DNA from: Clostridia bacterium | Lineage (GTDB): Bacteria; Bacillota; Clostridia; Oscillospirales; CAG-272 | Direction: 5' to 3' | NCBI GenBank assembly: GCA_017625065.1 | Contig: JAGALS010000038.1 | Span: 7,139-71,138, forward strand | Length of the DNA stretch: 64,000 bases | Shown: positions 1 to 52,983 of the stretch, in pieces | Position numbering within the stretch: the first letter of the stretch is position 1 | Layout: each line of letters opens with the position of its first letter | Notes under the pieces: model-generated | What the model was told of the DNA's origin: nothing | The model's database searches: none | What the model saw: the letters and a program-made list of their open reading frames with translations, nothing else | Position numbers and translations under genes: made by a program

Positions 1-501
1 ACCGTTCTGACGGTAGAGCTTGGATTACAGACCTGCCACGATAAAACCGCGGCGCTGATCAACCGCGGTCACACCTTCAAGGACTTCGTGGAAGGGTATC
101 AGCGACTGCGAGACCATGCCCCGAAAATACGGCTGGGCGTTCATTTGATTTTAGGATTGATTGGTGAAAATGACGAAATGATGGTTGAAACTGCGCAAAG
201 GGTCGCAGAGCTTCGGCCAAACGAGGTGAAATTGCATTCACTTTATGTTTTGGAAGGAACGAAAATGGCTGAAATATACCGTAACGGTGGGTATTTCGCG
301 CTTGAACGGGATCAGTATGTCGATCTTGTAGTGCGCGTGCTAGAGCGGATGCCACCGGAGGTCGTGATCGGCAGATTGACGGGCGACGGGGTGGAAAATC
401 AGCTTTTAGCGCCCCTGTGGAGCCAAAAAAAGCGTTGCGTTTTGAACGAAATAGACAAAAAGTTCTACAATGAAAACACTTGGCAAGGAAAAAAGTTTTA
501 A
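1..501 (+). CDS. Radical SAM protein, TIGR01212/YhcC-like, C-terminal part (5' end outside the window)
   Basis: Frame 1 is open from base 1 to the stop at 499-501. The translation TVLTVELGLQTCHDKTAALINRGHTF...KLHSLYVLEGTKMAE...GRLTGDG resembles the C-terminal half of this radical SAM family. The CxxxCxxC N-terminus is not in the window. Confidence 0.6.
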   Translation, partial: TVLTVELGLQTCHDKTAALINRGHTFKDFVEGYQRLRDHAPKIRLGVHLILGLIGENDEMMVETAQRVAELRPNEVKLHSLYVLEGTKMAEIYRNGGYFALERDQYVDLVVRVLERMPPEVVIGRLTGDGVENQLLAPLWSQKKRCVLNEIDKKFYNENTWQGKKF

Positions 502-521
502 ATTCTTGGTGTTAACAAGTC

Positions 522-550
522 TTGACGAATTGCCATTTATATGATAAAAT
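522..550 (+). promoter_or_regulatory. Sigma-A-type promoter for the LTD gene pair
   Basis: TTGACG (522-527), a 17-nt spacer ending in TGa (extended -10), then TAAAAT (545-550). It lies about 65 nt upstream of the ATG at 617. Confidence 0.55.
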
Positions 551-616
551 ACTAATGATTTGTGAGCGGGCCTAGCCTGCCCACGAGAGTAAAACAACCG
601 AAAAAGGAGAAACAAC

Positions 617-3600
617 ATGAAAAGAGTAATCTCACTTCTTCTTGCAATCTTGATGGTCACCGGCCTGTTTGCCGCTTTTGGTGTATCCGCGGCAGCAGAG
701 GGTGGTGCATCTGCCTCCGCGGCTTCTTCGAAGTACGTGGTGTATGAAGAGGACTTCGAAATGGGGGCCAATGCTTCGAAATGGTCCACGGATCAGGTCC
801 TTGAGGCGTTGGGATGGTATATTCCCGATGCCAAGGCAGATCGAAACATCGCGGAGTATCTGATCGTTGACGACGGAAACGGCGGTCAGGCGCTTCGTAT
901 CTCCACCAATTCGAATGACATTCAGGGTGTGCCCGATAGATACATGAGCTTCGTGACCATGTTCAACGGTGACTTGATGTCGGTCGTGCGTAACGGTAAC
1001 TTCACGATCTCTTACGATCTGACCTACCGTGCCGGCACGAAGAACACCAACGGCTACACCGCTATGATCTACAACTACAATGAAAAGGACAACGAGAACG
1101 CCAAGGAAGGCGAGGAGGGCCGTGAGGCTTACGGTATCGTTGCCATTCGTGCTTGCGGAACGGGTCTGAACAACATTTATTCTCCTCTTTCCGACGGTAA
1201 CGGCTTCGTTGAGTGCGCTCCCAATGAGGGCGATATCTCTATGAGCAACCGTTATCAGCTCCCCGGCGAGTATCAGTCTCTTTATTCCCGCATTGCCGCG
1301 TCTCTTGGCGATACCGATTATGTGGAAGACGAGAACACCACGCTGCAGGGCAAAGATCTTCTGATCGAGAAGACCATCAAGGTCGTGATGAATTACGACT
1401 TTGAAAAGGGTATGAGCGTTCGTATCAATGACGTTCTGGTTTCGACCCCCAATACCGATATCTATGCCAACGCCGCAAACTACTCCGGCTTGTGGAGCAC
1501 CTTTCTGGAGCGTAGCACCGGTGCAGCGCTTGGCTTGGTGACCACGCCTTACGTCGTTGCCGATATCGACAATATCAAAGTGCAGGCTGAGCAGATCGGC
1601 GGCGCTTTTAAGAACGAGATGCCCGAGCTGGTCATTTCCGAGGTGTGTGCCCGTCCCAGATTGAACTACGGCTGGGCAGACTTCCTTGAGATCTACAACC
1701 CCGGTGATTATCCCGTGGACCTTGCCGACTATGTTGTTATGACCTCCAACTATACCGAAACGACTGTTGACGATATGAAGAACGTCAATATGATGATGCA
1801 TACTTTCTTCGATATTCGTTATCTGGAAGATCATTTCGGTACGGTTGCGGTCAGTAATGCGGCTTATGTTGCTGAAGCTGACTTAATTAAAATGTACGAT
1901 TTCAAAAATCTTGACCCCGCAGGAAACACGCGCTTTAAATTTGTAAATGAAAAGACTTACAAAGTAAACGATAATGGCTCCTATACCGAAGATCCCAAGG
2001 GTCAGTTCCGCTACATCCAATATCTGGAGTGTTGGAACACCATTTACGATCCCAATTCCGAGAATGCGGCAAACTTCCATATGGATACCTACCTGCAGCC
2101 CGGACAGTGCGCGGTGATCATGGCGGCAAACAAGGGCTGGGGTAATACGTCGTATGCTTACGGTGTTAATGCCGGCACGCTTTCCGAAACCATCAACATC
2201 CACTCGATGAACTTCCGTAACCTTTACAGAAGAATGGGTCTTTCCAAGGATGTTAAGATCATTTTCTCCGACGTAAACCCCCTCACCGAGAACGTTCGTG
2301 GTCAGAATATCGGCGGTCGCCGTTACTATCTGGCGAAGGCATATGATGAGAACGGCAACAGAATCAATTACACCAGTAAATATATTTATGATAAAAATGT
2401 AAATCCCTACATCGTTTGCTATGCCGATTACAGTGCTCCTCTGGTTGAGGGTTACCTGGATGAAAATGCTGCGAACAATCCCGATCACGGTTATTTCGGC
2501 TTGGGCGGCGTTACTCACGGTAACAGATCCTGGGGCGTTTCCGGCTCTTATATCTACGGCGTTGATGCTTCTCGCGATCCCCGTTGCGGCACGATGTATT
2601 CCAACCGTAACTCGGTGACCAACGGCGCTACCGCGCACGTGGGATGCCTGTCCGGTGCTCAGGAAATTGTAATGAAGGATATGTACACCAAGGCAAAGGC
2701 TGACGGCGGCACTCTTGCGGATCTGACCATTACCGAGATCGCACCCAACACCAACAATCTGGCAGGGGAAGCAAAGAAGGCGTTCACCGCAATGGAGCTG
2801 ACGAACACCTCCTCGAAGCGCGTTAACCTTTACGACTACTCCTTGGTCAGCTCTGAGGTGGATGACACCTGTACTCCCGGTATGGGCTTCAGCTACTTCA
2901 CCAAGATCCAGGCAGGAAACCCTGTTGAGAAGACCTCCGGTAACGGTTCCTACTATTACTTCGCGCAGGACCATATCTCCAATCCCACGACTTGTGTTTT
3001 GGAGCCCGGTGAAACCGTGGTTATTTGGTTCCTGACTGAGGATACCTACTCCTCTTACTCTCGCGATGATACATTTGGCTTTGACTACTTCCGTCAATAC
3101 TGGGCAAATCAAGGCAATACACAGCTTGCTGTTAAATCTGCCGATGGCGGTTATGCGACGAAGGTCGTTGCGGTTGACGCAAACGTCAGCAAGACCTTGA
3201 ACGTTGGAAATACCGATCACCTCTTTGAGCTGACCACCAAGAAGTCTGTGGTTTACGGCGTTGCTCAAACGACCGAGGACCTGGAAGCAGGCAATATCTA
3301 TTCCAGAGACGTTGAGTCGGTTGCGATCCTTGGTGCTGCGTTCATTTATTTCAAGCTGGAATACGGCCCTGCTGTGTCTCCCACCACGGGTGAGACGTGG
3401 TATGCCTTGATCTTCAAGCGTGATATACCCGTTAATACCTCTATGCGTTATGTTGCGGGCGGTGCCGGCAACAGCAAATGCGGCGCGTTGGGGAATTCTA
3501 TCAGAAGTATTCGTTACTATCAGATTATGAAATATACGCAGATGTCTCAAACGCCTCTGCCTTTGGAGAAGTGGGCATACCGCTTCGATTCGACCAATGC

Positions 3601-4267
3601 ACCGATGGAGCCTCGCCTGGGTACACTTGACGGCAAGGAAGTGCTTCCTTTGCTTGATCAGCTCTTTGTTAAAACGACCTCCGAAACGGGTGATGAAACT
3701 TATCACTATTTCGATGCGGTCCGCACCAATATTATGACTCTGCAAGGTGCAGCTGTAAACACTGCAGGCTCTAAGCCTAAGCTTCGCTTTGATAATGCGA
3801 TTTCCAAGGACGTTTACTCTTCTTTGGTTTCTACGTACGGCAATGCTGTAGAGATCGGTACCTTGATCGTTAAGACCGATGCGCTTGGCGATGTCAAGAC
3901 CTTTACAGAGGATTACCTGAGCAATGCCGGTATTTCTTATAAAAAGGAAAAGAGCAGCTTGCTTTACCGCGGTAGCGAGTATGCGATCCTCTCCTCTTCG
4001 ATCGAGGTCGATAGTGTGGATGATTCTTACACCGCTATCGGTTATATGAAGATCACCTTGAGTGATGGCACGGTAAAAACGATCTATTCGTCCGAATCCA
4101 TTTCGCGCAATGTGAAAGAGGTCGCAAGCGCAGCGCTTTACGACCTTTCCGAGCAAAGAGCAGGTATTTACCAGTACAACTCGATCAACAGCGAAGGAAC
4201 CGTCGCCCAATATAGCCCCTATTCTGCTGATGTACAGCGGAAGCTGAGCGGCTACATCGGACTCTGA
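617..4267 (+). CDS. Giant secreted protein A (1216 aa): signal peptide, LamG/ConA-like module, two lamin-tail-domain-like modules, shared C-terminal module
   Basis: RBS AAAGGAGAA lies upstream of the ATG. The N-terminus MKRVISLLLAILMVTGLFAAFGVSAAAEG is a Sec signal peptide. LTD-like motif triplets are ELVISEV..FLEIYNPGDYPVDLADY..LQPGQCAVI and LTITEI..AMELTNTSSKRVNLYDY..LEPGETVVIW. Confidence 0.85.
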   Translation: MKRVISLLLAILMVTGLFAAFGVSAAAEGGASASAASSKYVVYEEDFEMGANASKWSTDQVLEALGWYIPDAKADRNIAEYLIVDDGNGGQALRISTNSNDIQGVPDRYMSFVTMFNGDLMSVVRNGNFTISYDLTYRAGTKNTNGYTAMIYNYNEKDNENAKEGEEGREAYGIVAIRACGTGLNNIYSPLSDGNGFVECAPNEGDISMSNRYQLPGEYQSLYSRIAASLGDTDYVEDENTTLQGKDLLIEKTIKVVMNYDFEKGMSVRINDVLVSTPNTDIYANAANYSGLWSTFLERSTGAALGLVTTPYVVADIDNIKVQAEQIGGAFKNEMPELVISEVCARPRLNYGWADFLEIYNPGDYPVDLADYVVMTSNYTETTVDDMKNVNMMMHTFFDIRYLEDHFGTVAVSNAAYVAEADLIKMYDFKNLDPAGNTRFKFVNEKTYKVNDNGSYTEDPKGQFRYIQYLECWNTIYDPNSENAANFHMDTYLQPGQCAVIMAANKGWGNTSYAYGVNAGTLSETINIHSMNFRNLYRRMGLSKDVKIIFSDVNPLTENVRGQNIGGRRYYLAKAYDENGNRINYTSKYIYDKNVNPYIVCYADYSAPLVEGYLDENAANNPDHGYFGLGGVTHGNRSWGVSGSYIYGVDASRDPRCGTMYSNRNSVTNGATAHVGCLSGAQEIVMKDMYTKAKADGGTLADLTITEIAPNTNNLAGEAKKAFTAMELTNTSSKRVNLYDYSLVSSEVDDTCTPGMGFSYFTKIQAGNPVEKTSGNGSYYYFAQDHISNPTTCVLEPGETVVIWFLTEDTYSSYSRDDTFGFDYFRQYWANQGNTQLAVKSADGGYATKVVAVDANVSKTLNVGNTDHLFELTTKKSVVYGVAQTTEDLEAGNIYSRDVESVAILGAAFIYFKLEYGPAVSPTTGETWYALIFKRDIPVNTSMRYVAGGAGNSKCGALGNSIRSIRYYQIMKYTQMSQTPLPLEKWAYRFDSTNAPMEPRLGTLDGKEVLPLLDQLFVKTTSETGDETYHYFDAVRTNIMTLQGAAVNTAGSKPKLRFDNAISKDVYSSLVSTYGNAVEIGTLIVKTDALGDVKTFTEDYLSNAGISYKKEKSSLLYRGSEYAILSSSIEVDSVDDSYTAIGYMKITLSDGTVKTIYSSESISRNVKEVASAALYDLSEQRAGIYQYNSINSEGTVAQYSPYSADVQRKLSGYIGL

Positions 4268-4311
4268 TGAACGTCGATTCCGAGTTAATACAGAAAAGGA
4301 GTAAATGAAAT

Positions 4312-7300
4312 ATGAAAAAATTCCTTTCATTTTTGCTTGCGGTTTTGATGATCGTCAGTGTTATGGTTCCGATGTTGACACTTCTTGTCAGCGCAGAAGG
4401 TGATGCCGACGAAAACGAGACCCCTGAGATCGTCTCCGATTTTCCGGAGCTGGTCATTAGCGAATATCACGCCAACGCCGTCTATTACAGCAACGTTTAT
4501 AACACGCTGATCGGCGGTAACGCAACCGAAGAGACCAAGTTTTTGGCCTCCACTATGTATCCTAAGGGATGCGGAGAGGTGCTGTATGCCCCTACATATG
4601 TTGCAGTAGGCGCTTCGGTTGGTGGATTGTATGTTAAAAATGTGGACTGGGTGACCGGTGAGATCACCTTCGATCCTGCAGGCGGCACTGCAGTTGAAGG
4701 CGTTCAGTATCATCGCCGTTATAATTTCACAGGCAATGATAACGAGATCGTTGAGTTTATCGAGGTCTATAACTCCGGCTCTGAGCCTATCAATCTTTAC
4801 GACTATCAGATCGTAAGGGATAAGGACGCCTTCAAGCATGGCGATGTCCCGATGTACATCGACCTTTACGGTGGTCCTCTTGCCGCTGCCGCTCACGGTC
4901 AGTACTTCAAGAAGGCTGGTAATATCACAGCTTTTGATCCTAGCATTGCGTATTATACCAAGAGAAACGAATACACCTATGTGCCTGTAAATCCCAACGG
5001 TACGCCTGATCCCAACACAACCTATTACTACGAGGTTCCGGAAGGCGCGTTTGTTGATAACCCCTCTGAGGAAGAGGGCGCATGGCTGCAGCCCGGTCAG
5101 GTTGCCGTTCTTTGGAACTTTACCTACCGTGACTGGCAGTATAATATAACCGAAGAGATCTTCAAGGCTTATTTCTCCACCGCTTATGGCTTTGGACAGA
5201 ATTGGGATGACATCCTTTTCCTTGGTATGGACGGTAACCATAGCGAAACCGATCGCTATATTCCCAAGAAGCAGACGATCACCGATAGTGAAATGAGCGA
5301 GGGTGGTTGTGTCCGCATCGGTATTGTGCACGATGATATCGCTGCCGAGAAACACGATGATACCATGTACGATACCGATTGGGTATCCTGGGTCTTGCAT
5401 GCATACTATTTTGGCATCAATTATAACGGTTCCTTTGCTTTGCAGAACACGGTCATCGGTGTAACGAAGGTTACTGAAGGCGGTTATCTTGTATACGATC
5501 AGAAGCGTGATGAATACGTTCCCGTAAGTCAGGCCGCAGGCACTGCCGATAAGAAGGGCTGCGCCGTAGCAGGTGTTCAGTACTATAAGGCCAGCGCAGC
5601 TGTTGCGACTAACGGCACCAACTCGAGATCCGTTGCTTATCTGTACGGCCTTGATGCTTCCGCCAATATCAAAGAGGGAAGAGCTTACACCAATAACTCT
5701 GCCGGTGTTTCTCCCGGAGTTTTGGATAACATTCAAGAGGCTGTTTTCCCCAATTACAGCAGAAGCGTAGAGGAGCTGAGCAAGACTCCCAGACTTGTGA
5801 TCACTGAGGTGGTGCCCGATAACGGCAAATCGGACGCGTATGAATACATTGAGGTCCTCAATGTTTCCGGCGCTCCCCTTAACGTTTTCGACTATACCTT
5901 TGTTGGACATCCCGACAATATCTCGCATTACAACGAGCAGTATTTCAGCAAGGTCAGCCCGATCATCCCCGGTGATTACGGTTCGATCTTGGCATCTACT
6001 GTTGTTACCAAATATCAGGAAGGCTATGCTGCCCTGGCTCCCACAAACGTTTCCTATCAAAACGGATGGCTGCAGCCCGGTGAAGCAGCTTTGCTGTGGA
6101 TGTTTACGCCGAACTCCTATACCGAGCAAGCAACCTTTGACAAGTTCCGCTCTCATTACAAGATCGATGAATCTGTAAAGGTCTTTGCTATAGATGGTGA
6201 CGGTACAAACGGCACAGGTCGTCCTCATCGTCAGGATCTGCAGGACACGGGACTTAGTATGTACGGTGTTATTTCCAACGATAAGCTGATGTGGTCGAAT
6301 AACAAGTACACATCCGATCCCGTTCTTCAGGCGATTACTTATTCCTCCGGCTTGACCAGACAAACGACCCGCGGTGTCAATATCAGAGATTGCGAATCCT
6401 TTGTTCTGTGTGCTGCGTTGCATGTTGCTTTCGCAAACGCTACGATCGGCACCGATTATGGTTATCAATACGTTTGGGGCAATACGCATGGAACGACCAA
6501 CAAGTGCGGCTCTTATTTGCGTATGTCCTACGCTTCCAGCTGCGGCGGTCAGGATTTCTCCGGTACCGGCTCTGTTGTGACCGATGCCTGGAAGGCTTCT
6601 CCCGGCAAGCTGATCGCAGAGCAAAAGACCGGTCTTGCTACGAATGCCAACAAGGATCGCTATATTGTCTATATGCAGGACTTCAACGGCTATGGCACTA
6701 TTACGGGCTATGATGCAGTTGCTGCAAAGCTCGGCCTTTCCGGAATCAACGATGCACATAGCGCAAACGTTGAGGCGACCGAGAGCAAGGGCGTAAGCTT
6801 CCTTGAAATTCGCGACGGCAAGCTCTATGTCAACAATAAGGGCTCTGCTGACGACTATATGACACTTCTTTCCGATGATGTTCTGAGCTTGCTCGACGAT
6901 CAAAGCTTCACCATTGAATATGCTATGACCTATAACGAGAAGTCGATGAACAATCAAAACGGATATAGCGGTATTCTTTATAGCTTCGATGCAAACAATA
7001 TGACGTATGGCGCACCCATTGTACGCGTTTCCGGTTACGGTAACAACGCGATTTCGCTTGGTGATGGCCTGATCGATATTGACGGCGGAGAAGGTAGCGC
7101 CAATTCTATGGCGAATAAGGATCTTCCGAATGATGCTCCTCTGACTCTTTACGAGCGCCTGTACGGCGATATCGATTCTATTGACAGCTTCTTCGACGTT
7201 CCTTCTCTGGATAGCAGCTCGATGCTTGCAGGCAAGCCTTTGACCGTTCGCATTGACGTTGACAGAGAAAACGGTGTTACCGTTACAGTGAACGGTGTGG

Positions 7301-8751
7301 CTGTTTACTCGACCACGGATTTGGATCAGTGGAATCAGTTCCTTGAAACGAAGGGCACCGATCTGGTGCTTGCAACCTCTGCAAATATTTCGGCTTCTTA
7401 CGATTACATCACCGTTTATACCGATGGCGATGCGATCCGTAGCGCGAACGAGGGATTGTATGGCAACGGCTTTATGATCACCGAGTTCCATAAGCCCACG
7501 GGCGAAGGCGCAGCGTTCAAGGCAATGGAGATCACAAACGTTTCCGACATTCCGATGAACCTGTATAACGCTATGATCGTAACCACCAGCGCACAGACCG
7601 GCAACGGTGTGCTGCAGACCTGGAACCATGCGATCAAGATGACCGCAGGTTGCCCTGTCAGCTCTTATGATCCTCTTTACAAGAGTCTCAAGCACATTTC
7701 CAATCCCAATAGCTGTATGGTTCAGCCCGGCGAATCTGTTGTGGTTTGGTTGATGTCCAACATCGGAAACTATGCTGATGAAAATGGCAATGTGACCATT
7801 AACACCAATGATTTCCGCAACTACTACAATGATCTTGGAAATACCAAGCTCACAGAGCTTGATGAAAAGGGTAATCCCATCGTCAAGGTCGTTATGGCGT
7901 ACGATTCGTCCGCATCGGATAATCACTTGCAGTATGCTTTGGCGAAAAAGAACAACACTTACTATACGAATAGCAACCGTTCTTACTTCCCGGAGGTGTT
8001 CTCCACTATCGTTCCTCAGAGCGATGCAGAGTATTCCTTGGGTTACCTGTCGCAGAGCAAGTACGGCTTGATCGCTGCATTGAAATTTACGCATATGGGC
8101 GAGATCGTTGAAAAGGATAATGATGGCAACGTGACCAACGTGATCAATGCTTACGTTCATCAGTCTGTTTTGAATGGCTTGACCGATGCAGGTGTGAAAA
8201 ACACCAGCGCGAGTGTAAGTGCTTCCAGCACGGGTGCTTCGATCTCCTTCAGAGCCGCCGTTAATACCGCATATTATAACCGTATGGTTGAGCTGTTTGG
8301 TGAGGACAATGTCAATTGTGGCATTTTGATCGCTCGCGCAGATTCCGCAATGGAAGCCTTCGCTATGCGTCCTTACTTGTTAGAGGCTGCTAGTGTTTCC
8401 TACATTGATGACAATGAGGGATTGCGTAGTGCTACTACCTCTGCACAGAGAACTGTGTACAGCAACGCCCATGCTGTTGATGCAGGCTATTATGCCGTTA
8501 CGTATTCTGCTGTAGCATATTGGTCCGTTGAAACACAGGCCTTTGGCACGATCACCAAGTATGCTGAAAATGCTTATCATCAGAGCGCAAAGCAGGTTGC
8601 TGCCGCTGCTATGATGCAGTATGTTGACACCGCTACGGCTAAGGCAGAAATGGCTGCTAACCCCGGTGTGAAGTACTATGAGATCAGTGCCGGCAAGTGG
8701 AGCTTGTATACGCGCGAGCAGATCGCACGTCTTGATGTGCTTTGCAAATAA
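4312..8751 (+). CDS. Giant secreted protein B (1479 aa): signal peptide, three lamin-tail-domain-like modules, LamG/ConA-like module, shared C-terminal module
   Basis: RBS AAAGGAG lies 10 nt upstream of the ATG. Signal peptide is MKKFLSFLLAVLMIVSVMVPMLTLLVSAEG. LTD-like triplets are ELVISEY..FIEVYNSGSEPINLYDY..LQPGQVAVLW, LVITEV..YIEVLNVSGAPLNVFDY..LQPGEAALLW and FMITEF..AMEITNVSDIPMNLYN..VQPGESVVVW. Confidence 0.85.
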   Translation: MKKFLSFLLAVLMIVSVMVPMLTLLVSAEGDADENETPEIVSDFPELVISEYHANAVYYSNVYNTLIGGNATEETKFLASTMYPKGCGEVLYAPTYVAVGASVGGLYVKNVDWVTGEITFDPAGGTAVEGVQYHRRYNFTGNDNEIVEFIEVYNSGSEPINLYDYQIVRDKDAFKHGDVPMYIDLYGGPLAAAAHGQYFKKAGNITAFDPSIAYYTKRNEYTYVPVNPNGTPDPNTTYYYEVPEGAFVDNPSEEEGAWLQPGQVAVLWNFTYRDWQYNITEEIFKAYFSTAYGFGQNWDDILFLGMDGNHSETDRYIPKKQTITDSEMSEGGCVRIGIVHDDIAAEKHDDTMYDTDWVSWVLHAYYFGINYNGSFALQNTVIGVTKVTEGGYLVYDQKRDEYVPVSQAAGTADKKGCAVAGVQYYKASAAVATNGTNSRSVAYLYGLDASANIKEGRAYTNNSAGVSPGVLDNIQEAVFPNYSRSVEELSKTPRLVITEVVPDNGKSDAYEYIEVLNVSGAPLNVFDYTFVGHPDNISHYNEQYFSKVSPIIPGDYGSILASTVVTKYQEGYAALAPTNVSYQNGWLQPGEAALLWMFTPNSYTEQATFDKFRSHYKIDESVKVFAIDGDGTNGTGRPHRQDLQDTGLSMYGVISNDKLMWSNNKYTSDPVLQAITYSSGLTRQTTRGVNIRDCESFVLCAALHVAFANATIGTDYGYQYVWGNTHGTTNKCGSYLRMSYASSCGGQDFSGTGSVVTDAWKASPGKLIAEQKTGLATNANKDRYIVYMQDFNGYGTITGYDAVAAKLGLSGINDAHSANVEATESKGVSFLEIRDGKLYVNNKGSADDYMTLLSDDVLSLLDDQSFTIEYAMTYNEKSMNNQNGYSGILYSFDANNMTYGAPIVRVSGYGNNAISLGDGLIDIDGGEGSANSMANKDLPNDAPLTLYERLYGDIDSIDSFFDVPSLDSSSMLAGKPLTVRIDVDRENGVTVTVNGVAVYSTTDLDQWNQFLETKGTDLVLATSANISASYDYITVYTDGDAIRSANEGLYGNGFMITEFHKPTGEGAAFKAMEITNVSDIPMNLYNAMIVTTSAQTGNGVLQTWNHAIKMTAGCPVSSYDPLYKSLKHISNPNSCMVQPGESVVVWLMSNIGNYADENGNVTINTNDFRNYYNDLGNTKLTELDEKGNPIVKVVMAYDSSASDNHLQYALAKKNNTYYTNSNRSYFPEVFSTIVPQSDAEYSLGYLSQSKYGLIAALKFTHMGEIVEKDNDGNVTNVINAYVHQSVLNGLTDAGVKNTSASVSASSTGASISFRAAVNTAYYNRMVELFGEDNVNCGILIARADSAMEAFAMRPYLLEAASVSYIDDNEGLRSATTSAQRTVYSNAHAVDAGYYAVTYSAVAYWSVETQAFGTITKYAENAYHQSAKQVAAAAMMQYVDTATAKAEMAANPGVKYYEISAGKWSLYTREQIARLDVLCK

Positions 8752-8799
8752 GTTGATCCTCACGCGTTATGAACTCTTTTCATAGCGCAAAACACAAAA

Positions 8800-8837
8800 C
8801 ATCCCGTTGGGGCATAGCCCCGGCGGGATGTTTTTTT
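8800..8837 (+). terminator. Rho-independent terminator after LTD gene B
   Basis: 13-bp stem CATCCCGTTGGGG / CCCCGGCGGGATG (two G-U pairs), loop CATAG, followed by TTTTTTT. Confidence 0.8.
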
Positions 8838-8941
8838 GCGCAAATTTTTGCCACTTTTACCCCTTTTTCTGTTTTGGAAACAAAATTTAAAATTTTTTTG
8901 CATTTTTCGAGAAAAAATTTTTTCTTTTTCCGTTTTAGCTA

Positions 8942-8970
8942 TTGCCAAATGACGAAAAATACAGTATAAT
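8942..8970 (+). promoter_or_regulatory. dcw/mraZ promoter
   Basis: TTGCCA, a 17-nt spacer, then TATAAT (8965-8970). It lies about 80 nt upstream of mraZ. Confidence 0.6.
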
Positions 8971-9048
8971 ATGATTAAGTGGTAAAGAATGTTAAGAAAT
9001 GTTATGAAATGGAATGGCGTTTCAACCTATGAAGGGAGGGAAACAAAG

Positions 9049-9489
9049 ATGCTGTCCGGCGAATTTCATCATTCAATAGACGCTAAAAATCGAGTTTCCG
9101 TTCCCGCCAAGCTTCGTGAAGAGCTTGGAAGTGAATTTATGGTCGTGCGTAGCTTACGCGGCGACTGCTTGCGGTTTTTTTCGATCCCTGCGTGGAAAGA
9201 ATATATAGAGCCTCTCAAAAAGCTGCCCCGTGCCGTGTCTGAAAAGACCTTCTGGTTTTTGTATCACGATGCCGCACAGGTCTCTCCCGATTCCTTGGGA
9301 CGTGTGCTGCTGACCAAGGGACTGCTTGACTTTGCAAAGATCGAACCCGACGAAGCGGGGAACCGTAACGTCGTGATCGTCGGATGCGGCGATTTTGGCG
9401 AGATCTGGTCCGAGGCACTTTATAATAAGCACGTCGACGAAATGGATATCGAAGAGATTCGTCGCTCGCTTGAAGAAAGCGGACTTTGA
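9049..9489 (+). CDS. mraZ: Transcriptional regulator MraZ
   Basis: [27 protein letters not shown] is the typical MraZ N-terminus (DxKxRxxxP). RBS GAAGGGAGGG lies upstream. It is the first gene of the dcw cluster. The upstream ATG at 8989 in the ORF track lacks an RBS. Confidence 0.9.
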
Positions 9490-9490
9490 T

Positions 9491-10426
9491 ATGTCACAGA
9501 ATTTTTCGCACCGTTCGGTGCTGCTTGAGGAATGTATTCAATCTCTTGCGATCCGTCCCGATGGCATCTATGTCGATGGAACTGCCGGTGGCGGCGGACA
9601 TTCGTTTGCGATTGCAAGCGCCTTGACAACGGGGTCGCTGATCGCGATCGATCGCGACGAAGCCGCGATCCTGGCGGCAAGCGAGCGTCTTGCTCCCCTT
9701 GGCGAGCGAGCTCGCGTGGTTCGCAGTAACTTTTCAGATGTCACTTCGGTGCTTGATACACTCCATATCGACCAAATAGACGGGCTTTTGCTCGATCTTG
9801 GTGTATCCTCTCACCAATTTGATGAAGCAGATCGCGGATTCTCTTACCGCAACGATGCTCCTTTGGATATGAGGATGGACAGACGGCAAGCAAAAAGCGC
9901 TTACGATGTCATCAACACCTATAGCGAAGAGGAGCTGCGCCGTATTCTTTACGAATACGGAGAAGAAAAATTTGCACCGCGTATCGCTGCTCGTATCGTA
10001 AAGGAGCGAGAGCTCGCACCCATTCAAACCACAAATCAGTTATCAGAGCTGATCAAAAGCGCAATTCCCGTAGCAGCTCGCGATGGCGGACATCCCGCCA
10101 AGCGTTCTTTTCAGGCAATCCGCATCGAAGTAAACGGTGAGCTGGATGTGATTGAGCCTACCATCGAGCAGGCGATCGCACGTATGAAAAAGGGCGGCAG
10201 ACTTGCGATCATTACCTTCCACTCGTTGGAGGATCGCATTGTGAAGCAAGCCTATCAAAAGCTGGCTTTAGGATGCACTTGCCCCAAAAGCTTTCCGGTT
10301 TGCGTTTGCGGCAACAAGCCTAAGATCCGTATTTTGACCAAAAAACCGATTCTGCCAAGCGAGAATGAGCTTGCAGAAAATCCCCGCTCTCACAGCGCTA
10401 AATTGAGGGTGGCTGAAAAATTGTAA
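9491..10426 (+). CDS. rsmH: 16S rRNA (cytosine1402-N4)-methyltransferase RsmH
   Basis: The translation shows [33 protein letters not shown] and [12 protein letters not shown] motifs. It follows mraZ. Confidence 0.92.
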
Positions 10427-50468: not shown

Positions 50469-51042
50469 GATCATAAAAGAAAATGAAGGATCCGTACAGG
50501 AGCCCGTGACCGACGATATCCTTGCCGAAGCCGAGGAGATGAGTCGGGGAGGGAAGGATCAAAAGAAAAAGACACGAAAGCTTGAAGCGGAGGTGCTGGA
50601 GGCGGGCAAGAAGCTGACCGAAAAGGAAGCGGAATTGGCGGAGCTGAATGACCGCTATCTGCGTCTTGCCGCCGAGTACGATAACTTCCGTCGCCGCACG
50701 GCACAGGAGCGCGACCGTATCTACGACGACGCATACACCAACGCGCTTTCCGCCGTGTTCCCGATTTTGGATAACCTGGAGCGCGCCGCACAGTACGCGG
50801 ACGGCGAAAACGTGACCAAAGGCGTTGCCATGACACTCAAGGGTGCTGCCGAAACGCTGGAAAAGCTGGGCGTTGTTGAGATCGAAGCGCTTGGCAAGAC
50901 CTTTGATCCTGTGTATCACAATGCCGTGTTTCACGTAGAGGATGAAGAGTATGGCGAGGGCGAGATCGTTGAGGTGTTGCAAAAGGGCTATATCAAGGGC
51001 GATCGCGTATTGCGCTATGCAATGGTCAAGGTCGCAAACTAA
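50458..51042 (+). CDS. grpE: Nucleotide exchange factor GrpE
   Basis: RBS AAAGGAGA. The translation shows RLAAEYDNFRRRT and GKTFDPVYHNAV. It overlaps the hrcA end by 11 nt. Confidence 0.92.
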   Translation: MTDEIIKENEGSVQEPVTDDILAEAEEMSRGGKDQKKKTRKLEAEVLEAGKKLTEKEAELAELNDRYLRLAAEYDNFRRRTAQERDRIYDDAYTNALSAVFPILDNLERAAQYADGENVTKGVAMTLKGAAETLEKLGVVEIEALGKTFDPVYHNAVFHVEDEEYGEGEIVEVLQKGYIKGDRVLRYAMVKVAN

Positions 51043-51092
51043 ACAATTAAAAAAATATAGAAGATAGATTCTTCAAAAAGGAGATTTGAATC

Positions 51093-52940
51093 ATGGGAAA
51101 AATTATTGGTATTGATTTGGGTACGACCAACTCTTGTGTTGCTGTTTATGAGGGCGGCGAGCCTAAGGTGATCCCCAATCCCGAAGGCGCGCGCACGACC
51201 CCTTCTGTTGTCGCGTTCTCCAAGACGGGGGAGCGTATGATCGGTCAGGTCGCAAAGAGACAGAGCATCACCAACCCCGACCGCACCGTCAGCTCGATCA
51301 AGCGCCATATGGGTACCGCCCATAAGGTCGCCATCGACGGCAAGGACTACACCCCTCAGGAAATTTCCGCAATGGTGCTGCAGAAGCTGAAGGCAGATGC
51401 CGAGGCATTCCTTGGCAGCCCCGTGACCGAGGCTGTTATTACCGTTCCCGCATACTTTTCCGATGCACAGCGTCAGGCAACCAAGGATGCGGGCAAGATC
51501 GCAGGCCTTGACGTAAAGCGCATCATCAACGAGCCCACTGCCGCAGCGCTTGCTTACGGTATGGATAAGGATCAGAACAAGGATCAGACCATCATGGTAT
51601 TCGACCTTGGCGGCGGTACCTTCGACGTTTCGATCCTTGAAATTTCCGACGGTGTGTTCGAGGTGCTTGCCACCAACGGCGATACCCGCCTTGGCGGTGA
51701 CGACTTCGATCAGCGTATCATCAATTGGATGGCTGACCTGTTCCAGAAGGAAAACGGTGTTGATCTGCGTAACGACAAGATGGTTCTTCAAAGACTGAAG
51801 GATGCCGCAGAGAAGGCAAAGATCGAGCTTTCCGGCATGACCTCTTCTAACATCAATCTGCCCTTCATTACGGCAACCGCAGCAGGTCCTCTGCACTTCG
51901 AGGCAACGCTTACCCGTGCCGAGTTTGACCGTATCACCGCAGATCTCGTAGATCGCTGCATGGAGCCTACCCGTAAAGCACTTGCCGATGCAGGCAAGTC
52001 TGTTTCCGAGATCGAAAAGGTCCTGCTTGTCGGCGGCTCTACCCGTATTCCCGCCGTTCAGGAGGCTGTGAAGAAGTTCACGGGCAAGGATCCCTTCAAG
52101 GGAATCAACCCCGATGAGTGCGTGGCGCTTGGTGCAGCCATTCAGGGCGGCGTGCTTGGCGGCGACAAGACCGACCTTCTGCTGCTTGACGTCACGCCCC
52201 TGTCTCTTGGTATCGAAACGCTTGGCGGTGTGTTCAACCGTATCATCGACCGCAACACCACCATCCCCGTAAAGAAGAGCCAAGTCTACTCCACTGCGGC
52301 TGACAATCAGACCTCGGTTGAGATCCATGTGCTGCAGGGTGAGCGCGAAATGGCTGCAGGCAACACGACGCTTGGCCGCTTCAACCTTGACGGCATTCCT
52401 CCCGCACCCCGCGGTGTTCCTCAGATCGAGGTCACCTTCGATATCGACGCCAACGGCATCGTGAACGTTTCCGCGATGGATAAGGGCACGGGCAAGGAGA
52501 CCCATATCACCATCACCTCCTCGACCAATATGTCTCAAGAGGATATTGACCGCGCAATGCGCGAGGCAGAGCAGTTTGCCGAAGAGGATAAAAAGCAAAA
52601 GGAAGCTGTTGACACCAAGAACCACGCCGAAACCTTGATCTTCCAGAGCGAGAAGACGCTGGGCGAGATCGGCGACAAGGTCAGCGAAGAGGATAAGGCT
52701 CCCGTGAAGGAAGCGATCGAGAAGCTGCGCACCACCGTGGCAGGCGGCAACACCGATGCCATCAAGGCAGATACCGAGGCGCTGGAAAAGGCATTCTATG
52801 CGTTGTCCGAAAAGCTTTACGCGCAGCAGGGCGGCGCACAGGGCGCAGGCCCCGATATGGGTGCCGATCCCAATATGGGCGGTCAGGCAGACGGTCAGGG
52901 CTTCTATAACGCCGATTTTGAAGACAAGAGCAATCAGTAA
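51093..52940 (+). CDS. dnaK: Molecular chaperone DnaK (Hsp70)
   Basis: The translation shows [25 protein letters not shown] and [14 protein letters not shown]. Confidence 0.98.
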
Positions 52941-52952
52941 TTGACCCGACGA

Positions 52953-52983
52953 GTGGGTGTTGCGCCATTGACGCGACACCCAT
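52953..52983 (+). other. Stem-loop in the dnaK-dnaJ spacer
   Basis: 12-bp stem GTGGGTGTTGCG / CGCGACACCCAT (two G-U pairs) with a 7-nt loop and no U-tract. It is probably an mRNA stability or partial attenuation element. Confidence 0.3.

Follow-up and report, generated by a model that had tools for sequence, protein, structure and literature searches.

Adjacent secreted multi-lamin-tail-domain proteins encoded in a conserved gene cassette beside mraZ in uncultured gut Clostridia

The stretch of DNA analysed here, referred to as the window, comprises 64,000 nt of a Clostridia bacterium (GenBank assembly GCA_017625065.1, contig JAGALS010000038.1), and all positions are counted from its first letter. 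The window begins inside a radical-SAM gene (88-501), downstream of which two large plus-strand genes lie side by side: gene A (617..4267), encoding 1216 aa, and gene B (4312..8751), encoding 1479 aa. A first-pass annotation of this DNA had described the pair as giant secreted mosaic proteins built from lamin tail domain (LTD) modules, and the open reading frames (ORFs) lie exactly where it placed them, at the sizes it gave and with the 44-nt gap (4268..4311) it had noted. Protein A consists of a signal peptide, a concanavalin A (ConA)-like module, two LTDs, a short beta region and a C-terminal domain (CTD), while B is built from a signal peptide, two LTDs, a ConA-like module, a third LTD and a CTD. 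The pair sits directly upstream of the dcw cluster, as had been claimed: mraZ, rsmH and a penicillin-binding protein (PBP) gene follow, an order that recurs in related lineages.

The common promoter proposed in the annotation is recovered by a consensus scan, which places a sigma-A-type site at 522..550 on the plus strand, with TTGACG, a 17-nt spacer and a TAAAAT element extended by an upstream TG. When the window is compared with 15 orthologous loci, TTGACG, a spacer of exactly 17 nt and TGnTA(A/N)AAT are kept in 16/16, a degree of conservation that appears unusual for intergenic DNA. Judged from these elements, the promoter would be sigma-A-like and not of a sporulation-sigma type. It is followed by a stem-loop near the predicted 5' end of the 5' untranslated region (560..586, plus strand; dG -16.7 kcal/mol, z -3.5 to -3.6). 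Of the 15 such regions folded (the window and 14 orthologues), ~12 form a hairpin that starts 3-4 nt from the predicted 5' end, with sequences that differ between loci. The stem-loop at 560..586 may act as an mRNA stabiliser that leaves the Shine-Dalgarno sequence unpaired, although it is suggestive only, because the individual z-scores are modest. The Shine-Dalgarno sequence of gene A, AAAGGAG (603..609, plus strand), lies 7 nt upstream of the ATG and is found 6-10 nt from the start codon of A in 16/16 loci.

No terminator-like site was found by scanning the 44-nt spacer between A and B (4268..4311, plus strand), which carries the ribosome-binding site AAAAGGAG. The transcript would instead end at the terminator that the annotation had assigned to both genes, an intrinsic terminator at 8797..8837 (plus strand) with a 17-bp stem and a 7-T run. 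Its hairpin has a dG of -42 kcal/mol and a z-score of -8.05, and none of 200 shuffled sequences folds equally well. A strong terminator precedes mraZ in 12/12 loci (the window and 11 orthologues), with a perfect, GC-rich stem of 12-18 bp in each. Outside the cassette, a promoter-like site for mraZ and the dcw cluster (8942..8970, plus strand; TTGCCA, 17 nt, TATAAT) agrees with the consensus at 11 of 12 positions. The 210-nt gap between the terminator and mraZ (8838-9048) is strongly AT-rich and contains long stretches of T and of A. An Rfam scan of positions 1-9600 returned a single match, SQ2397, on the minus strand (E 0.56, far under the gathering score); it overlaps this gap and is probably due to chance.

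Given the conserved promoter and Shine-Dalgarno sequence, the terminators and the separate mraZ promoter, the A-B cassette appears to be an insulated and strongly expressed unit. A functional tie to the dcw cluster, so far as the first-pass annotation implied one, is not supported, since the very strong terminator and the mraZ promoter at 8942-8970 insulate the two units from each other; the adjacency of the cassette to the cluster looks positional rather than operonic. The effective number of codons (Nc) is ~45 for both genes, which places them 12th-13th among the 41 genes of the window, and a codon adaptation index (CAI) proxy referenced to DnaK, AlaRS and LysRS gives 0.63-0.64 for A and B versus 0.40-0.53 for the neighbouring dcw genes. 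With this proxy the pair ranks 9th and 10th of 41, and several housekeeping genes score higher. Codon adaptation is thus above average, in the upper quartile of the window, and not top-tier as had been stated.

Both proteins are predicted to be Sec-secreted, in keeping with the earlier assignment: each begins with MKR or MKK, followed by a hydrophobic core of 17-20 residues and a cleavage site of the form VSA↓A or VSA↓E. The signal peptide of A (MKRVISLLLAILMVTGLFAAFGVSA↓AAE; 617..688, plus strand), recognised by its sequence features, is kept across the A family in a multiple alignment (alignment A1). Neither protein has a lipobox Cys, again as described before. Mature A has a mass of 132 kDa and a pI of 4.7, mature B a mass of 159 kDa and a pI of 4.6, and each protein contains 11 Cys. 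The two are paralogues with a rearranged module order. Pairwise blastp aligns A25-378 with B769-1093 (E 8e-12), A355-848 with B148-635 (E 7e-12) and, as the best of the similarities, A722-858 with B1068-1202 (33% identity, E 4e-15); the C-termini align at E 5.5e-4. An AlphaFold2 (AF2) model of mature A, built with 33 homologues, is compact (pLDDT 84.8, pTM 0.82) and beta-rich, and it is confident over both LTD regions.

The identity of the LTD modules was examined with the Pfam hidden Markov model (HMM) PF00932, whose gathering cut-off is 34.3 bits. Scored as whole proteins, A (53 bits, two stretches) and B (64.2 bits, three stretches) both exceed this cut-off. PF00932 also matches 33/33 members of the A family, in which it is the sole recurrent Pfam family. 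Exactly five modules are present, as the first-pass annotation had counted, and each matches the model singly, at 21.6-34.1 bits (E 3.9e-8 to 3e-4), just below the gathering score. The alignments span profile positions ~3-74 of 109, or 9-99 in the third LTD of B. Each of these supermodules is one LTD whose strands are split by insertions of 100-250 aa, and it is because these insertions truncate the match that the single modules stay under the cut-off and align to only part of the profile. The four-part LTD signature proposed earlier occurs five times in the right order, where at most 0.4 chance matches per motif would be expected.

All five modules lie on the plus strand. The first LTD of A (1619..2644; E 3.9e-8) contains large insertions and carries the motifs LVISE, FLEIYN, VDLADY and LQPGQCAVI, and the second (2711..3391; E 4.6e-7), in which the best similarity to B (A722-858) falls, is the most conserved module of the family. 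The first LTD of B (4441..5766; E 1.5e-7) has its motifs at aa 47, 149, 160 and 259, with ~95 aa inserted between strands 1 and 2. The second (5788..6636; E 4.1e-6; LVITE, YIEVLN, LNVFDY, LQPGEAALL) shows minor variants of the signature, and the third (7465..8181; E 3e-4) reads FMITE, AMEITN, MNLYNA and VQPGESVVV. The proportion of invariant positions across the A family is 17.8% in the second LTD, 12.5% in the ConA-like module, 6.5% in the first LTD and 5.5% in the CTD. No His and only one Cys are invariant in the family, and four of its nine invariant acidic residues fall in LTD motifs. Non-specific DNA binding is disfavoured by the charge of the modules, all of which are acidic or neutral in A and B (pI 4.1-6.9, net charge -26 to 0).

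The ConA-like module of A spans aa 38-325 (728..1591, plus strand). A Foldseek search of PDB with the model of mature A returned solely concanavalin-A-like jelly rolls (E 4e-5 to 6e-4, probability ~1.0, TMt 0.44-0.57), and such matches dominated the whole-chain fold search; from their aligned length of ~260-320 columns they would belong to the N-terminal module. The matches include 3u1x (DUF1080), legume lectins, calreticulin and the SasG lectin domain, as well as BoNT Hc-N (clostridial neurotoxin), Cip1, PL14 alginate lyases and a phage carbohydrate esterase. The corresponding module of B (aa 785-1040; 6664..7431, plus strand) is homologous to the N-terminal module of A (tblastn E 1.7e-10). 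The earlier guess of a Laminin_G- or DUF1080-type module therefore holds at the level of fold and fails at the level of sequence families: neither Laminin_G_3 nor DUF1080 matches the isolated modules at E <= 10, and neither these nor HMMs of carbohydrate-active enzymes (CAZymes) match any of the 33 A members at E <= 0.5. Going by the predicted model, the module appears to be detectable by structure only. Several Tyr, Arg and Asn are invariant within it, no Glu or His is, and D294 on the terminal strand is the only invariant acidic residue. Since no Glu is invariant, the A family alignment contains no GH16-type catalytic acid pair (ExDxxE) in this module.

A module common to both proteins had been missed in the first-pass annotation. 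The last ~185 residues of A (3701..4264, plus strand) and of B (8194..8748, plus strand; HMM E 3.3e-56) form a CTD that aligns well over both families (alignment A2). Modelled by AF2 on its own, it folds confidently (pLDDT 93.5, pTM 0.86) as an immunoglobulin (Ig)-like/E-set beta-sandwich with helical insertions. Its best PDB fold match is the N-domain of TVAII/neopullulanase (E 3e-4, TM-score 0.37), which we take to be of the carbohydrate-binding module CBM34 type, followed by ApaG, TcpF and EcpA. No match was found in a viral fold library at E <= 1e-3, and a sequence-profile search of PDB with whole-A and CTD profiles gave nothing real. Pfam and NCBIfam likewise gave no significant match, and none of their models covers the CTD.

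To place this domain in a wider context, 1.84 billion representatives were searched exhaustively with HMMER, as an index-based profile search had returned four fragments only. The CTD is present in at least 1,766 protein clusters at E <= 1e-3, 683 of them at E <= 1e-10. Among 71 of the best-scoring proteins that were inspected, 65 have a signal-peptide-like N-terminus, and the CTD lies at the C-terminus of 39, within 27 and at the N-terminus of 5. Its partner domains include fn3, a ceramidase-like domain, Lactamase_B (metallo-beta-lactamase, MBL), Metallophos and Exo_endo_phos (EEP). From these sequences the CTD appears to be a mobile module carried at either end of signal-peptide-bearing phosphoesterases. 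Wall-retention modules such as SLH are likewise mobile. We considered whether the CTD might have diverged from an LTD or might always accompany one, and rejected both, as the LTD signature occurs in 0 of 124 CTD proteins outside the family. A nuclease in the CTD was also rejected, because PF12187 (VirArc_Nuclease) matches only 1 of 31 members (E 0.002) and the only residues invariant across A and B are one Gly and one Ala, none of them charged; the fold is, moreover, an Ig-like sandwich.

In the B orthologue of locus L003 (13603-21042, 2480 aa) the CTD is split, with HMM positions 3-75 and 82-185 lying ~380 aa apart. The stretch between the two halves, which appears in the C-terminal tails of proteins P0061-P0067, is a repetitive insert rich in Y-Y...G..Y motifs (for example GVTYYEKNGEEYVVV), and the arrangement looks like an insertion of one domain within another. 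On a metagenome contig (L027, 3405-12477), two tandem genes encode large proteins with an EEP domain (PF03372), 1338 and 1227 aa long, the first of which (P0116) carries a CTD. The genes form a three-gene module that occurs twice, with an 88-aa ORF before each EEP gene and a 46-aa ORF after it; ScmC- and PqqD-like genes are close by.

Apart from the LTDs, Pfam and NCBIfam scans of A and B gave no significant match, in agreement with the claim that a wall anchor and a catalytic motif are absent. A sortase-type C-terminus is lacking, with neither an LPxTG motif nor a hydrophobic run after residue 40 in either protein. EEP, MBL, Metallophos and thermonuclease domains have no Pfam or NCBIfam match in A, B or the orthologues scanned, the CotH kinase domain (PF08757) has no Pfam match in A, B or the A family, and the B orthologues scanned contain no enzyme domain. 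Matches to YidC_periplas, LPAM_1, halo_sig_pep, DUF4232 and PRTRC_D were below cut-offs and non-recurrent, and we dismissed them as chance. Neither the window nor the ~526 kb of related loci contains another ORF with a ConA-like, LTD or CTD module of the A/B family.

All relatives come from metagenome-assembled genomes (MAGs) of uncultured gut organisms, sampled from rumen, from the caecum of roe deer and goat and from human gut, that are labelled Clostridia, Oscillospiraceae or Eubacteriales. Gene A is present in all 17 related lineages, just downstream of the radical-SAM gene, and mraZ-rsmH-PBP follows A or A-B wherever the contig reaches that far. The first-pass annotation had treated the two genes as equals, a view that does not survive this comparison: B is missing from five of the 17 lineages (L010, L015, L016, L018 and L019), in which A directly precedes mraZ. 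Where present, B varies in length, from 982 aa in one lineage to 1,950-2,557 aa in others, and the longer forms scanned contain four LTD stretches. Across lineages A is 33-49% identical, compared with 67-84% for the neighbouring rsmH and PBP. From this distribution, A would be the ancestral conserved core and B a lineage-variable paralogue. At two of the loci (L001 and L003, 1-10000), where A is 38-44% identical, the upstream order is MecA, a DinG-like helicase, an aminotransferase and the radical-SAM gene (Radical_SAM and Radical_SAM_C), then A. A third A-like paralogue of 1206 aa, ~30% identical to A and equipped with a CTD, is encoded at another genomic location (L020, 9857-13477, plus strand) of the same MAG that holds a canonical A-B pair (L014).

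The first-pass annotation had argued for novelty on the grounds that the LTDs are multiplied and no enzyme domain is visible. That argument falls, as Mans et al. (2004), according to the summary of that work in PMC6085458, had already described secreted proteins that combine several LTDs with sugar-binding domains. As far as this summary describes the class, its members share with A and B a signal peptide, several PF00932 modules, a fold of sugar-binding type and no catalytic domain, whereas A and B differ from them in LTDs expanded by insertions of 100-250 aa, in the CTD that no model covers and in forming a conserved, apparently strongly expressed cassette beside mraZ. NCBI already names the orthologues of A and B 'lamin tail domain-containing protein'. 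The pair thus belongs to an architecture class that has been described, and existing knowledge is not contradicted; what goes beyond the first-pass annotation is the lectin module recognised at fold level, the distinction between a core A and an accessory B, and the conservation of the cassette across lineages.

A and B were also compared with other known systems. Nucleases of the ExeM/NucH type and LTD phosphoesterases are extracellular and carry LTDs, and the same enzyme superfamilies bear the CTD elsewhere, but neither nuclease nor phosphoesterase domains occur in A and B, which are acidic throughout. CotH-LTD spore-coat kinases differ in possessing the CotH kinase domain, and the promoter of the cassette is sigma-A-like. 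Gram-positive S-layer pairs such as sap/eag of B. anthracis and SlpA/CWP of C. difficile resemble A and B in being large, acidic, Sec-secreted, rapidly diverging products of adjacent paralogues, and S-layer genes likewise have a strong promoter, a structured 5' untranslated region and a strong terminator. Unlike S-layer proteins, however, A and B lack SLH and CWB2 domains and contain 11 Cys each, and their membership of this group is putative. The A-domain lectins of SasG/Aap (PDB 7smh/8g1m) and DUF1080 (3u1x) share the jelly-roll fold of the A module by Foldseek, yet at ~10% sequence identity, with no relationship at HMM level and in another domain context. ExeM-type nucleases, CotH proteins, sortase substrates and S-layer proteins with SLH or CWB2 each have a defining feature that is absent from A and B, which therefore belong to none of these groups. 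Our literature search found no paper linking LTD proteins to Firmicutes S-layers or to the A/B family.

We tentatively read A and B as abundant proteins without catalytic function that coat the envelope or bind glycans at the cell surface, with A as the core and B as a variable accessory, a reading to which we give a little less than an even chance. It starts from the gene and domain anatomy, the lack of detectable catalytic signatures, the conservation of the cassette and its synteny, and the fast divergence, all of which are directly observed. A self-contained and strongly expressed transcription unit would yield two Sec-secreted, acidic proteins, each made up entirely of beta-sandwich modules for binding or scaffolding (a ConA-like module, two to three LTDs with large insertions and an Ig-like CTD). 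In this uncultured lineage of gut Clostridia these would serve as a main coat or decoration of the cell envelope, either as an S-layer-like or as a surface glycan-binding layer. A would be the ancestral core and B a fast-evolving accessory that grows and shrinks via module duplication, while surface retention and ligand binding could be mediated by the lectin-like module, the CTD or both. High abundance, surface location, glycan binding and lattice formation would be the properties that such a role entails. The traits that resemble those of S-layers are the pI of 4.6-4.7, the two adjacent paralogues and the divergence of A, which is faster than that of rsmH and PBP. The earlier suggestion of an abundant surface or matrix component stands in so far as the expression signals, conserved in the orthologous loci checked, fit an abundant product; abundance and surface location themselves are presumptive.

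Several observations weigh against this envelope role. Classical S-layer proteins usually have few or no Cys, whereas A and B have 11 each, and their codon bias is outside the very highest of the window. SLH, CWB2/CW_binding_2, LysM, SH3b, LPxTG and lipobox were all searched for in A and B and not found. The best fold matches of the CTD are weak (TM-score <= 0.38) and generically Ig-like or CBM-like, and the ~526 kb sampled from the clade contains no further CTD protein. Every organism involved is, in addition, an uncultured MAG, and the abundance and location of A and B are deduced. A more far-reaching version, which seems to us unlikely, makes the CTD a hitherto unrecognised functional equivalent of SLH/CWB2 that retains proteins non-covalently at the surface of gut Clostridia, with A (and B where present) as an LTD-based S-layer or major coat. 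If true, the S-layer would be of a new architecture, and bacterial LTDs would have their first defined structural role.

A minority possibility of some weight is that A and B leave the cell as soluble, multivalent lectin-like proteins or adhesins and bind host mucin or dietary polysaccharide, for attachment or to capture substrate, in place of forming an integral coat on the wall. No known type of wall anchor was found in either protein, their host organisms inhabit animal guts, and A diverges rapidly in sequence; the ConA-like fold is a lectin fold with the lectin domain of the adhesin SasG among its matches, and the TVAII N-domain, presumably of CBM34 type, is the best, though weak, fold match of the CTD. 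The partners of the CTD are, however, mostly phosphoesterases and not CAZymes, for which surface retention is a better fit than a CBM targeting a substrate. The compact body of A (pTM 0.82) also lacks the stalk or repeat region typical of adhesins, and dockerin and cohesin are absent from A and B. The same fold matches could be read differently, as signs of a hidden enzyme, most plausibly in the ConA-like domain (a GH16-like glucanase, a DUF1080-type hydrolase or a PL14-like lyase), which would make A and B ordinary secreted CAZymes. The putative glycosyl hydrolase 3u1x (DUF1080), the PL14 alginate lyases, Cip1 and the phage carbohydrate esterase would agree with this, as would the invariant Tyr, Arg and Asn of the module. 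Yet lectins score equal to enzymes in the Foldseek search, 0/33 members match CAZyme, DUF1080 or Laminin_G_3 HMMs, and the module has no invariant Glu or His, which together make an enzyme improbable.

The LTDs themselves suggest an analogy with LTD nucleases and with the chromatin-binding lamin tail, by which A and B would be matrix proteins that bind extracellular DNA. LTDs typically accompany extracellular nucleases (PMC6085458, PMC5118699), deletion of the LTD reduces the activity of ExeM in vitro (PMC6085458), and EEP-family enzymes are among the partners of the CTD. We consider this analogy very unlikely to hold: every module is acidic or neutral in the pI and charge ranges given above, no nuclease domain is present beyond the borderline VirArc_Nuclease match in 1/31 members, and DNA degradation by ExeM in vivo does not need the LTD (PMC6085458). 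The position upstream of mraZ might finally point to a role in cell division or wall synthesis, given that radical-SAM, A, (B), mraZ, rsmH and PBP follow one another in this order in all 17 lineages. A strong terminator separates the units in all loci checked, however, mraZ has its own promoter in the window, and the third paralogue in one genome (L020) lies elsewhere. MecA, the helicase, the aminotransferase and the radical-SAM gene are syntenic as well in the two loci listed, which suggests general gene-order conservation within the clade, and a division role deserves hardly any credence.

Should the envelope-coat reading be correct, A and B would be dominant surface proteins of a widespread group of uncultured Clostridia from the ruminant and human gut, and candidates for interaction with host or dietary glycans, for phage receptors and for antigenic variation. 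Bacterial LTDs would in that case gain a concrete function, structural or in binding, that could be tested. Whatever the role of A and B, the CTD represents a large domain family that folds confidently and is covered by neither Pfam nor NCBIfam, and it merits annotation.

Two further regions of the window deserve mention. Between 24332 and 34520 (plus strand) lie four tandem paralogous ORFs of ~790-810 aa with a mutual identity of 57-64%, each with a lipoprotein signal peptide (L-[FS]-S-C lipobox). They have no significant Pfam match and only faint similarities to MBL and ComEC C-terminal sequences. Over the C-terminal ~400 aa they show homology (E ~1e-17) with the metallo-beta-lactamase-like part of two CTD proteins from other organisms, P0105 and P0119; related enzyme modules thus carry a lipid anchor in the window and a CTD in those organisms. 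At 51042-52979, a minus-strand ORF gives a strong match to PF10712 ('NAD-GH'). This family is an artefact that arises when dnaK is translated from the wrong strand, and the true gene there is therefore probably the plus-strand ORF of 615 aa at 51093-52940, which would encode DnaK.

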